This document shows positions 37,728 to 43,346 of a DNA stretch of 64,000 nucleotides, piece by piece (within the stretch, counting starts at the first letter, position 1; the number at the start of each line of letters is the position of its first letter). Made by a program: the position numbers and the translations under genes. The notes under the pieces were generated by a model. The model was not told the origin of the DNA, ran no database searches, and saw only the letters and a program-made list of their open reading frames with translations. The stretch is from Cyanobacteria bacterium auto_48_18. Lineage in GTDB: Bacteria > Cyanobacteriota > Vampirovibrionia > Obscuribacterales > Obscuribacteraceae. Location of the stretch: contig JAVHQC010000033.1 in NCBI GenBank assembly GCA_036170915.1, forward strand, positions 64,001 to 128,000, given 5' to 3'.

Positions 37728-38702
37728 CTATTTTGATAATGCCAGCGAGACCAGATAATCAACTAAATACGCTCGCGCGTCTACTATTTTGCTGAAGCCA
37801 TTGTATTGAATAAAGGTTGTTCCGGCGCCGTTCAATTCATTTACCCAATCACCAATGAAATCAACAGAGCCAATTTTAAGTTGAGATTGCTTACAAATTT
37901 GCTCTGCGTAAAGCTTGTCTCTTTCGAAGTTCTGATTATTAGAAGTATAGGCAGAGACTTGAAAATCTGCTGCATCAGGGCTCCATGGTGTGTGGCGACC
38001 GTGAGTGATGCGTGCTGCCACACACTTACCGTCAACAATCCATAGTCTCTTTTCCGGGCCACTGACATAGTTTTGAAAGCAATATTCGTCTAGAGCTGTG
38101 CCTGAATCGGTGATGTAATCTTTTAGTTTTTTGAGATCACTGTCACTTTCTAGCTTCTTAATGCCGAAGCCAGAGCCGCCCCATTTCGGTTTGGCTACAA
38201 GTGATCCGTGTTTGCTCAATAAGTCATGAGCTTCTAAATAGTCACTGGCAAGGTAAGTAGGTATGATCTTCGAATTGGGCGATTTATGACTCACCATCCA
38301 GTCTTTCAGACAATTTTTCTCCGCCTCTGGAGCATTTAAAATCATTGACACCGAACTATTATCTAGCGACGACTGGTGCAAAAACATTTGTGCTTGTATA
38401 AAGTCCAGCCGTTTTTTGAATCCCTGTTCAATGTGATTGAGCCAGTAACCATCGCTGTAGACGATCCAAAAATCGGCGCTCGGTTTGACCAGGCAATGCT
38501 TTTGAAATCGGCCACCTTTGACCCGCCGGTAGGTAGCAACCTTGCCGTTTTTAAAGTCATATCCATCTACCGGAACCAGCCACAAGTCGCTAACAGTATC
38601 AAGTGCAGTGACAATTGATCTGATTGTGGAGAGCCTTTTGCCTGCAATAAGTTCCGGATTGACGGTGAGAAGAATTCGCTTTTTACCTGGCATAGCTGGC
38701 AT
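37728..38702 (-). CDS. ATP-grasp ligase, GshB/RimK-like
   Basis: IIPTY, VAKPKWGGSGFGI, FQNYV, EKRLW, GSVDFIGDWVNELN. Confidence 0.8.
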   Translation of the reverse strand: MPAMPGKKRILLTVNPELIAGKRLSTIRSIVTALDTVSDLWLVPVDGYDFKNGKVATYRRVKGGRFQKHCLVKPSADFWIVYSDGYWLNHIEQGFKKRLDFIQAQMFLHQSSLDNSSVSMILNAPEAEKNCLKDWMVSHKSPNSKIIPTYLASDYLEAHDLLSKHGSLVAKPKWGGSGFGIKKLESDSDLKKLKDYITDSGTALDEYCFQNYVSGPEKRLWIVDGKCVAARITHGRHTPWSPDAADFQVSAYTSNNQNFERDKLYAEQICKQSQLKIGSVDFIGDWVNELNGAGTTFIQYNGFSKIVDARAYLVDYLVSLALSK

Positions 38703-39981
38703 TTACCGGCTCGAAGTCAAAAGTCAGCATGGCTTTACACAGCTCGAATTTACTCTCCAGTTCTTCGATACTTTGAGCTCCGATGTCAATGAGCCCGTAC
38801 CTGTAGCTATTTGCGTCTTGCACTTGTTCTGAAAGCTTTTGACCTGTTTTTGCATAGACTTGCACACGCGTATCTGGAAACGTTTGGATAACACTATCAA
38901 TTTGTTCTGCGGTTGGTGTTGCGTGCACATGCTGGTCTGTGAATATACGCAGCACACAACTCGCCGCTACTTTGTAGGCACCGCTTGCTTTTTTCGTTTG
39001 AGGCTTTTGATTAATGGCCACTTCCAGCAAAGTTTGATACGTGCTAAATCCGTCAACTTTTTCAAAAAGGTTGGGAAACTGCGAAGCTATTTTAGGATTG
39101 ACCTCAATGATATCGATTCGATCCGTCTCAGGATTGTAAAAGAGCTCCATATTAAAGAGTGCGTTGTTATATTTGATGCCACTGAAAAATTTGACGGCAA
39201 TTGCGTTCATCCTCTCTAGAACCGGCTCAGGGAGCAAGCTTGGGTATTGCCAGCGTTTAAATGACATCGTGCCGGAGAACATGATGGCATCAACCACGCC
39301 CATAACGCATACCTGGTCGTTAAATACGTATCCTTCAAGCGAAACTTGAGTGCCGCTGAGAAGCTCTTCTTGCAGTAGGCAGGTGGCATGCTGCGAGAGC
39401 GAAGTATAAGCTCTCACCATTTCGTTGAAAGGCTCTATAAACTGGTGAGGAAGAAGTGCTTGCTCACTAAATCTCCGCAAGCTGTCTGGATCATTTACCG
39501 TGTAGGCGTTTTTTGACATGCATGATTTCACCGGTTTCAAAAAACACGGAAAGGACAGTTCGCTTTTTAAAGTTTCGGGCTGTTCCGGGTCAATCAGGTG
39601 AAATTTTGGTGTTGCTTCAGGAGCATATTTTTGCTGGAAAATTCGCGAATAATATTTGTGTTCGCATAACATGATTGCTTGTGGGGGCGCACCTGGAAGC
39701 GAAAGTTTTTCGGCAATGACGGCCGCCGCCGACATTCCGGGATAACCTACAGCTGACGTTACACCAGCCAGGCCCGCATGCTGATACTTTTCTACGGTGC
39801 TTTCAATCAAGTCGACTATTTTTAGTACTGGCTTTGTGACGTCAGGATTTTCACCAAGAAAGTCATCAAAATAATCATCATCAAATACATCGAAAATGAT
39901 TTCGCAATTGAGCTTGTTGGCAATGGCAGGCAATTGGCTGCGTTCGCGTGATGTAGGGCTGAGTACGAGTACTTTTTTCAT
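38683..39981 (-). CDS. ATP-grasp ligase, L-amino-acid-ligase-like
   Basis: CEHKYYSR, FPCFLKPVKS, LLQEELLSG, FNMELF, IIEVNPK. Confidence 0.85.
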   Translation of the reverse strand: MKKVLVLSPTSRERSQLPAIANKLNCEIIFDVFDDDYFDDFLGENPDVTKPVLKIVDLIESTVEKYQHAGLAGVTSAVGYPGMSAAAVIAEKLSLPGAPPQAIMLCEHKYYSRIFQQKYAPEATPKFHLIDPEQPETLKSELSFPCFLKPVKSCMSKNAYTVNDPDSLRRFSEQALLPHQFIEPFNEMVRAYTSLSQHATCLLQEELLSGTQVSLEGYVFNDQVCVMGVVDAIMFSGTMSFKRWQYPSLLPEPVLERMNAIAVKFFSGIKYNNALFNMELFYNPETDRIDIIEVNPKIASQFPNLFEKVDGFSTYQTLLEVAINQKPQTKKASGAYKVAASCVLRIFTDQHVHATPTAEQIDSVIQTFPDTRVQVYAKTGQKLSEQVQDANSYRYGLIDIGAQSIEELESKFELCKAMLTFDFEPVNASYAR

Positions 39982-40940
39982 TTAGTCACGCTGTTTTCTT
40001 TGATGAGTCGATCAAAGTATCGCGCCAGTTCTCTGCCGAAAGCCTGGCCTTTATTTGAATAGTTGGCGTACATCGATGGATTAAGCAATTCAGCTTCTAA
40101 CAACATGGGCGAGCCTGCCACCTTTAGAATATCCACTCTGCTAAAGTGCACAGGGTAACCCATCGATTCGTATACTTTAAGAACGTTTTTCGCAAATGAA
40201 ATCTCTTGGTCCGTTGGCTCGTAGACTGCTACCGAGCCGCCGAGAGATTCGTTGCAACGAAACTCTTCTCCTGTTTGTTTTGGTTTCTTGATCACGGCGA
40301 GCTGAAATTCGTGTCCAAGAAATACTAAGCTGCGCTCGCCATCCCAGATTTCTGGCATGAATTGCTGTGCCATGAAAGCCTCTTCACGTCCTGCAATTGT
40401 TTGGAGATCGTTTTGAGTTTTGGCCAGAAAAATATGATTGCCTCGTTCTCCGCACAAAGGTTTAATGACAAATGCTTCGCCCTGTGCGAGCCGCTCTTTA
40501 ATGTCTGCAATTTTGAATGATGGAATTATGCGAACGTTGTTTTTCTCTAAATCCCACAAGTAGCTTTTATTCAAGTTGTGTTTGATAGTCTCAATTTTAT
40601 TCACAACATTTGTGTGTGCAAAGCTGCGCAGCATCTTATTAAAGCTGGAAAGGTCGTCATAAAATCCCTCCATCTTATAAACGAAAATCAGGTCGAATTT
40701 GTCCAGCGGTACAGGCTTTTCATAAGACTCGCTGTTAAAACAATACATGCGTTTAAATTCGGCGATTTCAGTGCTTATCGCTAAGTCGCGCCAATTAACA
40801 AAAAAGACGTTGTGGCCCAAGTCTTTAAGTGATTGGGCAAAGTGCAGAGAATCGTATTCATCAACACTAAACTTGAGGGCGAAAAGTTTGTCTGTGGACT
40901 TTTCCACATCTTCGGCCATAGTAAAGAGAATATTACTCAT
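39978..40940 (-). CDS. ATP-grasp ligase, RimK/GshB/DcsG-like
   Basis: NLNKSYL, FVIKPLCG, QQFMPEI..GERS, FRCNESLGG, SRVD, LLEAELLNP. Confidence 0.85.
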   Translation of the reverse strand: MSNILFTMAEDVEKSTDKLFALKFSVDEYDSLHFAQSLKDLGHNVFFVNWRDLAISTEIAEFKRMYCFNSESYEKPVPLDKFDLIFVYKMEGFYDDLSSFNKMLRSFAHTNVVNKIETIKHNLNKSYLWDLEKNNVRIIPSFKIADIKERLAQGEAFVIKPLCGERGNHIFLAKTQNDLQTIAGREEAFMAQQFMPEIWDGERSLVFLGHEFQLAVIKKPKQTGEEFRCNESLGGSVAVYEPTDQEISFAKNVLKVYESMGYPVHFSRVDILKVAGSPMLLEAELLNPSMYANYSNKGQAFGRELARYFDRLIKENSVTK

Positions 40941-40947
40941 GCTGCGT

Positions 40948-41688
40948 TTAGGCCGTAAGGCAGGCTTTTTGAGGTTCGTTCAAGCCGGCCTTGGCAAAAC
41001 TAATTGCAAACGAAGCCAGCACAGATAGAGGATCTATAACAGGTACGGTGAGGTCTCCGTCTTCCAAAACAAGCGATACTTCAGTGCAGCCGGCGACGAT
41101 ACACTGCGCACCGTTTCTTACCAGGTGAGAAGCGGCGCTTATGATGGCTTTGCGAGCAGAATCTTTCTTGCCGGCTTTGATTCCGTCTGCGCCAAAAATT
41201 GCAGTCATAATCTCTGACTGAATCACGTCATCGGGCGTCACTTGCTTTAACGCGAGTGAGCTGATCCATCGTTGGTATAACTCGCTTTCTAAGGTGGCAG
41301 TAGAGCCGATGATGCCAATTCTTTCAAGCTCTGGATAGGTTTGTTTGACAAATTCGACGGTGGTTTGCACCATATCAATTATTGGTATTGAGACCGCTTC
41401 TCTGAGTGGCTTGAGATAGTAGTGGGCCGTGTTGCAGGGCATTAGCAAAAAGTCGGCCCCGGCAGCTTCTAAAACGGTGGCAGTGCGAATTAGTTCTGGC
41501 AGCGCCGATGGACCATTCGCTGAAATTGCGTCAACGCGGTTTGGAATAGCGGAATTATTGAAGGTAATAACGGGAATGTGCTGCTGATCGCAGGACGCTG
41601 GCGTCAAATCTGTGATTAACTCGCAGAGGCGATTGGTGGCATGAGGACCCATGCCTCCGATAATTCCGATTGTTTTGTATCTCGGCAT
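40948..41688 (-). CDS. PLP-independent aspartate/glutamate-family amino acid racemase
   Basis: IGIIGGMGP; both catalytic Cys motifs intact (PCNTAH and AGCTEV). Confidence 0.92.
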   Translation of the reverse strand: MPRYKTIGIIGGMGPHATNRLCELITDLTPASCDQQHIPVITFNNSAIPNRVDAISANGPSALPELIRTATVLEAAGADFLLMPCNTAHYYLKPLREAVSIPIIDMVQTTVEFVKQTYPELERIGIIGSTATLESELYQRWISSLALKQVTPDDVIQSEIMTAIFGADGIKAGKKDSARKAIISAASHLVRNGAQCIVAGCTEVSLVLEDGDLTVPVIDPLSVLASFAISFAKAGLNEPQKACLTA

Positions 41689-41770: not shown

Positions 41771-42526
41771 CTAGGACGGTGGCTGTATAGGTTCGAAAGT
41801 GTGACCCAGCTCTTTACTGCGCTTGATAATTTCGCGAGTAGCATTGATGGTTTGCTGGGCCGTGCTTTGCCCTTCGTGCAGCACCACCAGCTCGTTGCCC
41901 GGGATGGCGTGCATGATGCGTTTAACTACGGCGGCCTCACCAATGGCGCGGTAGTCGTCTGCCATGGCTCCCCAGTAAACCGCCGACATCTGGCGCTCTT
42001 TGAGAATGGCAGCGGCGCGTTTATCCATTAAGCCGAAGGGTGGGCGAAAGAGTGCGGCGCTCGAGGCTGTAATTTCCATGATCAAATTATTGGTGACATC
42101 AATCTGTTTCTCAATGGCCCGAGTGCTTAAGGCCGGCAAGAACATATGATCAAGCGAATGATTGGCAATGGTGTGTCCGGCCTTGTGCACTGCTTGCACA
42201 AGCTCAGGGTAACGTCTTACATTGTCGCCAATAAAAAAGAACGTGCCTTTAACGTTCTCTTCAGATAGCACTACCAGTAGTTCTAGTGTGGTGGCAGGGT
42301 TAGGCCCGTCATCAAATGTTAAATTGATTTGGCGGCTTGTGGCAATGCGTCGCGCCGCCTGGTTCTTTGACCAATATCCGGCTGGTAAAATTGGTTTTGC
42401 CAGTGAAGTAAGCAAGTTCATGTTGAGATTGTGCAGTTTATTCTGAAAATCTTCTTTTGCAACCTGACGCTTCTCACTGACTTCATTTTCGTCTTTGTCT
42501 GAGTCGTCAGGCATGACTTGCCTCAC
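41771..42526 (-). CDS. Polysaccharide deacetylase (CE4)
   Basis: LTFDDGP, NHSLDH, FRPPFG, VVLHE. Confidence 0.9.
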   Translation of the reverse strand: MRQVMPDDSDKDENEVSEKRQVAKEDFQNKLHNLNMNLLTSLAKPILPAGYWSKNQAARRIATSRQINLTFDDGPNPATTLELLVVLSEENVKGTFFFIGDNVRRYPELVQAVHKAGHTIANHSLDHMFLPALSTRAIEKQIDVTNNLIMEITASSAALFRPPFGLMDKRAAAILKERQMSAVYWGAMADDYRAIGEAAVVKRIMHAIPGNELVVLHEGQSTAQQTINATREIIKRSKELGHTFEPIQPPS

Positions 42527-43346
42527 TCAGGTCTTCAGGTTGCGACAATTTGGTGGCATTTTGAATTAGTGTGTGAATCGCCCGACGCGCCCGCTCGCCT
42601 ACTTCGGCTGAGCGTCTCTGAGCGATTGATTCGATGGCGCTGGCAAAGGCGTAAAATCTTTCAATTGATAAGTGCGTTGCTTTCGGATGCGGTAAGAGGC
42701 TGCGCAAATAGCCGCGCAAATTGTTTGATTCTTTTTCTGTCAGTGGGTCCAAAATAGCAAGCAAGGGCTTGAGCATTTTTATGGAAATGAGCGGCCGTTG
42801 ATAAGCAAATACTCCGCGGGAAAGGGCGCGGTGTATTAAGCGACAATGGGGCAGCGGTGCCTTTTTATCGCGTCCAGCTTCAGGAATTTTAGAGAGCTCC
42901 GGTTGCCACTGATCGAAGTCGTGCAAGACATGTAAAACCGATGGCGAGGTTTGACCATATGAGCTATTTATGGGCAGCAAGCCATAGATAAAAGGTCTTG
43001 ATTCGCATCTGTCTACGTCTTTAGATACGTTCAGCAAAACTGAAGCGATGTTACTCGAGCGAACGATAATTGCCTGCTCGTTTACCTGATTAATGCGTCC
43101 GGGGGCGAAAGCGACTTCTTTGACGGCAAATTCTTGGCAGAGCAACATGTCGAGCACATTGTCGCCTACAAGAGCGCCAAACTCTGCGGTGGTGATATTG
43201 CCGGCGACAAAATAGATAGTGACGTCCGGAATCTGGCGGCCAAATCTAACTGAGAGTACTCCGGTGACCCGCTCAAGGCTGAGAAATTGCATCACATTAA
43301 AGAGAGTGCCTTCTCTAACAGATGTTATATGAAAGCTAATGCCCAA
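42507..43346 (-). CDS. DUF4388/PATAN-like domain protein
   Basis: LFNVMQFLSLERVTGVL...IYFVAGNITTAE. Confidence 0.65.
   Translation of the reverse strand: MGISFHITSVREGTLFNVMQFLSLERVTGVLSVRFGRQIPDVTIYFVAGNITTAEFGALVGDNVLDMLLCQEFAVKEVAFAPGRINQVNEQAIIVRSSNIASVLLNVSKDVDRCESRPFIYGLLPINSSYGQTSPSVLHVLHDFDQWQPELSKIPEAGRDKKAPLPHCRLIHRALSRGVFAYQRPLISIKMLKPLLAILDPLTEKESNNLRGYLRSLLPHPKATHLSIERFYAFASAIESIAQRRSAEVGERARRAIHTLIQNATKLSQPEDLSEASHA

Follow-up and report, generated by a model that had tools for sequence, protein, structure and literature searches.

ATP-grasp ligases turn a carboxylate into an acyl phosphate and then into an amide. L-amino acid ligases (Lal) are described to make dipeptides from free amino acids and RimK to be able to make poly-Glu from the free amino acid (PMC6920838), DcsG is placed after a racemization step (PMC9298251), and the RimK-like TgiB is credited with making a gamma-linked dipeptide from free substrates (PMC13674229). 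The genes racD and aslA are found in one operon, with AslA being an ATP-grasp D-Asp ligase (PMC4155827), and CuyB is described as acting in degradation together with the sulfo-lyase CuyA (PMC11193023). The locus dealt with here lies in a 64,000-nucleotide stretch of DNA from Cyanobacteria bacterium auto_48_18 (assembly GCA_036170915.1, contig JAVHQC010000033.1, positions 64,001 to 128,000), hereafter the window, in which a racemase gene is followed by three genes for ATP-grasp ligases (g1, g2 and g3). On balance, this four-gene module probably serves the cytoplasmic synthesis of a D-Asp-containing di- to tetrapeptide, independently of non-ribosomal peptide synthetases (NRPS) and with g3 being optional. 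The cassette comprises the following genes.

40948-41688, minus strand: racemase of the pyridoxal phosphate (PLP)-independent, two-cysteine, aspartate/cysteate type, 246 amino acids (aa) (PF01177, TIGR00035, NF052483, 1jfl)
39978-40940, minus strand: g1, ATP-grasp ligase with DcsG-type motifs and a GshB/RimK-type R-x-N loop, 320 aa (PF02955/PF08443, profile match to DcsG 6jil)
38683-39981, minus strand: g2, ATP-grasp ligase with a predicted L-amino-acid-ligase fold, 432 aa (PF13535, 27.1 bits; model compared with 3vot)
37728-38702, minus strand: g3, predicted GshB/RimK/LysX-class ATP-grasp ligase that is accessory to the cassette, 324 aa (PF02955, 24.5 bits; model)

All four open reading frames (ORFs) are intact and lie on the minus strand. 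The tight coupling that an earlier note had described from the DNA letters was reproduced, coordinates included, with a 7-nt gap between the racemase and g1, a 4-nt ATGA overlap between g1 and g2, and a 20-nt overlap between g2 and g3 when counted from the first ATG of g3. Each gene is present as a single copy in the host genome (4.94 Mb, 86% complete), and the cassette has a G+C content of 45.0% against 47.9% for the genome, a value equally low in 2.2% of 1228 segments of the same size. A promoter and terminator scan of the cassette region gave matches at the consensus level only.

The family labels that the earlier note had given to the four products also hold, the best matches being PF01177 with Cys85 and Cys201 for the racemase, DcsG (6jil) for g1, L-amino acid ligases for g2, and a tie among ArgX, LysX/ArgX and GshB for g3. 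The three ligases are assigned to the ATP-grasp superfamily, g2 and g3 by predicted models and invariant residues and g1 by profile alone, and they fall into three different classes with conserved catalytic motifs, none of them reaching an NCBIfam cut-off. In profile comparison the best solved match of g1 is DcsG 6jil (E 4e-13), followed by GshB and RimK, and the protein combines DcsG-type motifs (E202-x-S204, R268-x-D270 and E282-x-E284-x-x-N287-P288) with an R228-x-N230 loop as in GshB and RimK. Its residues K125, K160, E202, R228, N230, D270, E282, E284 and N287 are invariant in 113 of 113 sequences. The DcsG model NF058666 gives g1 51.5 bits (cut-off 360), and the GshB model TIGR01380, with its cut-off of 299, gives 56.2 bits for g1 and 35.7 for g3. 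According to its predicted model (pLDDT, the predicted local distance difference test score, 94.1), g2 has the three-domain L-amino-acid-ligase fold, the best folds being the L-amino acid ligases 3vot (Z 33.3, root-mean-square deviation (rmsd) 3.1, 368 residues) and BacD (Z 30.2), with the uncharacterised 4dim (Z 30.1) and RizA 4wd3 (Z 27.8) also close. K109, K149, E279 and E293 occur in 107/107 g2 sequences. The motif of L-amino acid ligases is, as we assume, E-x-N-x-R, with a role for its Arg, and g2 departs from it: in E293-x-N295-x-K297, position 297 is Lys in 105/107 and Arg in 2, Arg being found there in 28/29 distant g2 relatives.

The predicted g3 model (pLDDT 95.5) ties among ArgX (Z 21.6), LysX/ArgX (21.5) and GshB (21.4), ahead of DcsG (19.8) and PsnB (18.0). 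K133, K171, E217, R219, D281 and N291 are kept in 86/86 sequences, position 289 being E/D, and the family is small, with 32 representatives at E<=1e-30 among 1.84 billion searched. The fact that PsnB is the top Foldseek and profile match of g3 could suggest that the ligases work as macrocyclases of the graspetide type, with a ribosomally made precursor peptide as their substrate. This is hardly credible, since full alignment puts PsnB below ArgX, LysX and GshB (21.4-21.6), no precursor ORF is common to the phyla carrying the cassette, and a racemase of free amino acids has no place in such a pathway. The three ligases do not resemble each other closely, as had been claimed before: g1 and g3 are remotely related (profile probability 96.7, 19% identity), and g2 gave no match to either in profile comparison, so that a recent duplication is not the explanation. 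Across all three, the ATP-binding Lys and metal-binding acidic residues are invariant. In the Protein Atlas, the cassette proteins fell only into unnamed or general ATP-grasp clusters.

Searches with the g3 profile recovered 41 genome loci, close kin and duplicates included, from Obscuribacterales/Melainabacteria, Pyrinomonadaceae/Blastocatellia and metagenome-assembled genomes (MAGs) of Burkholderiales. The racemase and the three ligases thus recur together across three phyla: g2 is present at 39 of these loci, g1 at 32, the racemase at 23 and all four genes at 21, the two loci lacking g2 ending within 36 bp of g3. Such counts indicate that the grouping is not due to chance. At 47 further, mostly short metagenome loci the corresponding numbers are 39, 25, 8 and 8. 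A whole-genome search of 104 genomes of the host family (Obscuribacterales, judging by the nearest named relatives), with close matches defined as at least 41% identity, found g3 in 22, g1 in 21, g2 in 27, the racemase in 19 and the complete set in 16; five partial sets stop at contig edges, and two genomes (G151 and G217) have the three ligases and no close racemase. All 19 genomes with a close racemase also have g1. In 151 genomes of a Pyrinomonadaceae-type family (that of G206), the 10 that carry g1 are also the ones that carry g2, with the racemase present in 9 and g3 in 6 of them, and at four loci (L154-L157) g3 is cleanly gone from between g2 and g1. At two of these four g3-less cassettes (L154 and L157), residue 203 of g1, otherwise Arg or Lys, has become Ile and Met, possibly a sign of decay or of an altered reaction. 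Within Burkholderiales, g1-g2-g3 loci or parts thereof were found in six genomes, none of which has a racemase above 33% identity, and among 251 sampled genomes of the order a close g2 was seen in the seed genome only. Viral contigs yielded no g1 relative, and plasmids gave no g3 match and only weak g1 matches.

The usual layout has g2>g3 facing g1<racemase, with order and orientation being variable, and the single-operon layout of the window is shared with L032-L034 and L038. This variability, the distance of 14-20 kb that can separate racemase-g1 from g2-g3, the presence of g2 alone in six family genomes and the occurrence of distant g2 relatives in other contexts would suit a set of loosely linked, independent modules (racemase-g1, g2 and g3) with separate products. 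We regard this as very improbable, given that g1 is found with g2 in 10/10 Pyrinomonadaceae carriers and 19/21 host-family carriers (the two misses being at contig ends), that the g1 and g2 trees agree, and that stand-alone g2 genes form a branch outside the cassette clade. The cassette is modular, its constant core being g1 plus g2, and the operon of four genes is just one of its forms. The absence of g3 from 4/10 Pyrinomonadaceae carriers and of the racemase from 6/6 Burkholderiales genomes means that a fixed tetrapeptide is not implied.

The racemase belongs, judging from its score and its two catalytic cysteines, to the PLP-independent Asp/Glu racemase family PF01177 (147.3 bits, cut-off 31), and it also exceeds the thresholds of TIGR00035 (196.5 bits, cut-off 93.1) and of the CuyB model NF052483 (228.5 bits, cut-off 190). 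Its closest solved structure is the aspartate racemase of P. horikoshii (1jfl, E 3e-56), on which C85 and C201 align to C82 and C194 and R51 and K171 to R48 and K164; all four residues are invariant in 28/28 cassette racemases. In the P. horikoshii enzyme (PhAspR), Arg48 and Lys164 are, we presume, the contacts of the side-chain carboxylate, and their equivalents R51 and K171 are present here. The racemase is therefore predicted to act on a short acidic amino acid, Asp being more likely than cysteate.

The alternative that it is a true cysteate racemase, the product being a D-cysteate peptide (the sulfonate analogue of D-Asp), draws on the CuyB model, which was passed by 12/12 cassette racemases tested (210-230 bits against 190), each scoring above its own TIGR00035 value, and on a plasmid-borne g2 relative of Paraburkholderia (36% identity) that faces a gene resembling D-cysteine desulfhydrase/CuyA. 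One of 14 control genomes also exceeds the CuyB cut-off, so that this model may not be specific. Moreover, PMC11193023 describes CuyB together with CuyA in degradation, whereas in five carrier genomes, including the 86% complete host genome, neither the CuyA sulfo-lyase (NF052482; best 25 bits against 450) nor cysteate synthase was found over cut-off, and no sulfur or sulfonate gene is conserved near the cassette loci. A D-cysteate product thus appears quite improbable.

As to which ligase would take the D-residue, g1 is the predicted candidate, because the racemase stays upstream of g1 and because a racemase-less clade has replaced five near-invariant g1 residues. The racemase lies directly upstream of g1 in every racemase-bearing locus, and the pair is kept even though g2-g3 can be 14-20 kb away (G206, G207 and G385) or in opposite orientation. 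Trees of g1 (33 rows) and g2 (41 rows, from a quick search) recover the same groups, and both unite L020 and the Burkholderiales cassettes that lack a racemase in a single clade (100/99; SH 96). In the g2 tree, stand-alone genes form a separate branch outside the cassette g2 clade. Identity matrices correlate among the ligases (rho 0.33-0.59, 26 loci) and with the racemase (0.30-0.58, 20 loci), to an extent explicable by shared ancestry alone. In the g1 of the racemase-less clade, the changes A9N, F34Y/C/W, F86W, K89Q and S289A are seen in 14/15 rows, and racemase-bearing cassettes are unchanged at these positions in 25-26/26. The sole row of the 15 with the usual residues is L119, counted as racemase-less from a 1.5-kb contig that lacks upstream DNA. 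Y88 and K89 of g1 align to R86 and K87 of GshB, and counting along the motif puts S289 at T288. We take Arg86, Thr288 and Arg225 of GshB to have their roles at the active site, with these g1-aligned positions presumably lining the acyl-donor site.

We infer the substrates, the order of the steps and the product from these features taken together. The racemase would convert L-Asp to D-Asp; g1 would activate the D-Asp carboxylate as an acyl phosphate and join D-Asp to a second amino acid; g2 would form a further amide bond; and g3, where present, would add one more residue at the peptide carboxylate. The product would then be a di- to tetrapeptide or isopeptide. In Burkholderiales, the cassette without a racemase would give a variant product, in which some other residue takes the place filled by g1. 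The proposal is made because Lal enzymes join free amino acids, DcsG follows racemization and TgiB makes a gamma-linked dipeptide. It is further supported by the absence of a hydrophobic N-terminus from all four proteins and by the fact that wall D-Glu has its own racemase elsewhere in the host genome, which also contains another racemase of the PF01177 family and a gene that is closer to DcsG than g1 is. The suggestion made in the earlier note that the three ligases could build a short D-amino-acid peptide therefore stands as the best reading, as a prediction from sequence, with the amendment that g3 and the racemase are dispensable and a tetrapeptide is not fixed.

Several observations weigh against this reading. 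The g1 substitutions arose on one branch and hence count as one event, and the same clade also changes g2 at 6/135 conserved positions (9/113 for g1 and 2/61 for g3). In addition, g1 of L107, L157 and L159 has no adjacent racemase and yet has kept K89. The racemase substrate may not be Asp, given that all 12 racemases tested score over the cysteate-racemase cut-off and that position 87 is Thr in 8/28 cassette racemases and another residue in 20/28. Six host-family genomes carry g2 without other cassette genes. Finally, there is no conserved exporter, peptidase or regulator that would hint at what the product is for.

This last point comes from clustering of the flanking ORFs, which revealed, beyond the cassette, no gene common to the three phyla and no conserved transporter, peptidase, regulator or wall gene. 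No precursor or carrier candidate emerged either, as none of the clusters formed by the 1210 short ORFs (20-110 aa) in the vicinity of the 41 loci has members in more than one phylum, a search that very divergent precursors could escape. The unit had been described before as devoid of a precursor peptide and of an exporter, and none is conserved near the cassette loci. These results bear on the possibility that the ligases add amino acids to a cytoplasmic macromolecule, either by polymerizing them (RimK- or cyanophycin-like) or by giving a protein or carrier protein a tail (RimK/LysX-like). An internal product of this kind needs no exporter, the g3 fold is tied among ArgX, LysX/ArgX and GshB, g1 has weak matches to RimK profiles, and poly-Glu synthesis by RimK from the free amino acid has been described (PMC6920838). 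We nevertheless find it rather unlikely: no carrier or target, among short or longer ORFs, is conserved across phyla, three ligase classes suit ordered steps better than a homopolymer, and the scores on RimK/LysX models are all far under cut-off.

With regard to the cell envelope, a polysaccharide deacetylase gene lies 82 bp and murE 2327 bp upstream of the cassette in the window. The MurE product carries the DNPR motif, passes the meso-diaminopimelate (meso-DAP) ligase models NF001126 and NF001124 and fails the Lys model NF010628, in agreement with its earlier description as DNPR (meso-DAP) type, and the classical D-Asp-Lys bridge is, as anticipated, unlikely in the absence of an L-Lys acceptor. 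A role of the cassette in attaching a D-Asp-containing side chain to peptidoglycan precursors or to some other polymer of the envelope, in the manner of racD-aslA of lactic acid bacteria with its ATP-grasp D-Asp ligase AslA (PMC4155827), might be read from these neighbours, from L104, in which murC-murB-ddl precede racemase-g1 on the same strand, and from the S66 LD-carboxypeptidase gene that adjoins distant g3 relatives (L114 and L115). Still, L032, which is near-identical, is the only other locus with the window neighbours, a murE-type match is found at 2/88 loci, the known acceptor is L-Lys whereas the window MurE is of the DNPR type, and the cassette is patchy inside one genus, with 5/15 genomes of the window's genus carrying it in at least three different neighbourhoods. 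The envelope or lipid decoration previously offered as an option thus has little in its favour, its deacetylase, acyltransferase and murE neighbours not being conserved, and we consider it unlikely. For the same reason of recurrence in L032 only, the flanking deacetylase, DUF4388, murE and acyltransferase genes were rejected as parts of the cassette. The DUF4388 (PatA-N-like) protein (279 aa, window 42507-43346, minus strand), the stop of which overlaps the ORF of the deacetylase that precedes the cassette, is 98% identical in L032, its neighbours being 84-93% identical.

Other genes were seen in association with the cassette or its components. In most Acidobacteriota cassettes, a multiheme cytochrome c of about 970 aa with a P460-like domain is encoded between g3 (or g2) and g1 (L046:11101-14109 and 14 other Pyrinomonadaceae/Blastocatellia loci), and it is kept when g3 is lost. 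In one Acidobacteriota branch, g2 is preceded by a gene for a membrane protein of 370 aa that has histidine-rich motifs and matched neither Pfam nor NCBIfam (L069:6469-7578, L050, L055, L057, L058 and L116). Elsewhere in the host genome, on contig C29 (L138:1028-6499), a DcsG-like ATP-grasp gene (183.5 bits against 360) adjoins an MBOAT-looking gene and two related unknown genes, and many cassette-free genomes of the family contain DcsG-like genes of a similar kind. The host genome, at 86% completeness, has no glutathione synthetase over cut-off, g1 and g3 being the sole matches; replacement of glutathione synthesis was considered as a role of the cassette given the missing gshB and set aside, since 81/104 family genomes lack the cassette.

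More distant relatives of g2 and g3 point to further contexts. Distant g2 relatives (30-40% identity) are found in 31/251 genomes of the order Burkholderiales, and they adjoin the arsenosugar-biosynthesis glycosyltransferases TIGR04283 and TIGR04282 and a SelD-N-terminal-like oxidoreductase at 11, 9 and 9 of 30 loci, respectively (the loci in this context being L162-L166, L169-L171, L173, L176 and L178). It is possible that these relatives represent the ATP-grasp step of arsenosugar- or selenium-linked clusters. Two plasmids of cultured hosts carry g2 relatives as well: one of 31% identity in Streptomyces rimosus (L153:7992-11385), with a CocE/NonD hydrolase and a major facilitator superfamily (MFS) transporter, and the one of Paraburkholderia fungorum mentioned above (L151:6946-10676), which is accompanied by a flavin adenine dinucleotide (FAD) oxidoreductase. 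Distant g3 relatives were named from Nanoarchaeota and Woesearchaeota. At L115:7-4112 and L114, a g3 relative (31-33% identity) comes after a RimK-like and a GSP-synthase-like ligase and before the S66 LD-carboxypeptidase, a nitroreductase being present as well, in an operon that is apparently archaeal in origin; both contigs begin at the first ligase, so that an upstream racemase could not be seen.

NRPS-independent peptide synthesis by ATP-grasp enzymes together with a racemase is a known class of chemistry, and the three-ligase combination with its modular variants was not found in print. The literature search, which covered open full text and could have missed an earlier bioinformatic mention, returned no description of this gene set, and no ligase reaches a family cut-off, in line with the previous statement that the set is not recognised as a characterised pathway. 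A broader view, which we put forward tentatively and hold to be quite possible though somewhat short of probable, is that a mobile, mix-and-match line of three ligases, which in this analysis was confined to uncultured bacteria from three phyla, produces a novel family of small D-aspartate (or D-cysteate) peptides, in which loss of the racemase and remodelling of the g1 pocket would switch the residue and g3 would set the length; g1-g3 would be new families, one of them D-specific, and g3 would link to ligase operons of DPANN archaea. If true, this would name a new metabolite family of mostly uncultured soil and freshwater bacteria and add three uncharacterised peptide-bond-forming enzymes, among them a candidate D-amino-acid-specific ligase useful for biocatalysis. 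The natural variants, with or without the racemase and with or without g3, make the pathway directly testable with four small soluble proteins, amino acids and ATP, and the five g1 positions offer a ready test of stereo- and side-chain choice in ATP-grasp enzymes.

Compared with the systems described so far, the cassette resembles racD-aslA of Lactococcus lactis and Enterococcus faecium (PMC4155827) in that an aspartate-type racemase is linked directly to an ATP-grasp ligase predicted to use the D-product. Unlike racD-aslA, it has three ligases of other classes, a MurE of the meso-DAP type, a patchy, accessory spread and no conserved link to wall genes; no AslA/Aslfm homology appeared among the general profile and structure matches of the ligases, a comparison that included no AslA sequence or model. 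DcsG (6jil), which acts downstream of racemization (PMC9298251), shares with g1 the E-x-S/D, R-x-D and E-x-E-x-x-x-P-S motifs, whereas g1 scores 51.5 of 360 bits, keeps the R-x-N-x-x-x-G-G loop lacking in DcsG, and has no other dcs-type gene conserved nearby. The full three-domain fold and the E-x-N motif relate g2 to the L-amino acid ligases BL00235 (3vot), BacD/YwfE (3vmm) and RizA (4wd3), from which it differs by an identity of only 9-19% and by Lys297 in place of the Arg of E-x-N-x-R. In the case of g3, fold and motifs (E-K-R, D and E-x-N; Z 19.4-21.6) are those of GshB, LysX/ArgX and RimK, but the identity is 13-16%, a T-P-W loop stands in place of the R-x-N loop, and the protein is dispensable in some carriers. 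The cassette racemase passes the NCBIfam cut-off for CuyB of Bilophila wadsworthia and has the two catalytic cysteines, whereas it sits among biosynthetic ligases, with no CuyA partner found. Finally, the thioglutine and actinothioneine clusters (NHISS plus one or two ATP-grasp ligases, as described in PMC13674229) share with the cassette the small-scale, NRPS-independent joining of free amino acids; no sulfoxide synthase is conserved beside the cassette, in which the unusual residue would instead be supplied by the racemase, TgiB and AshB being compared here by their description.

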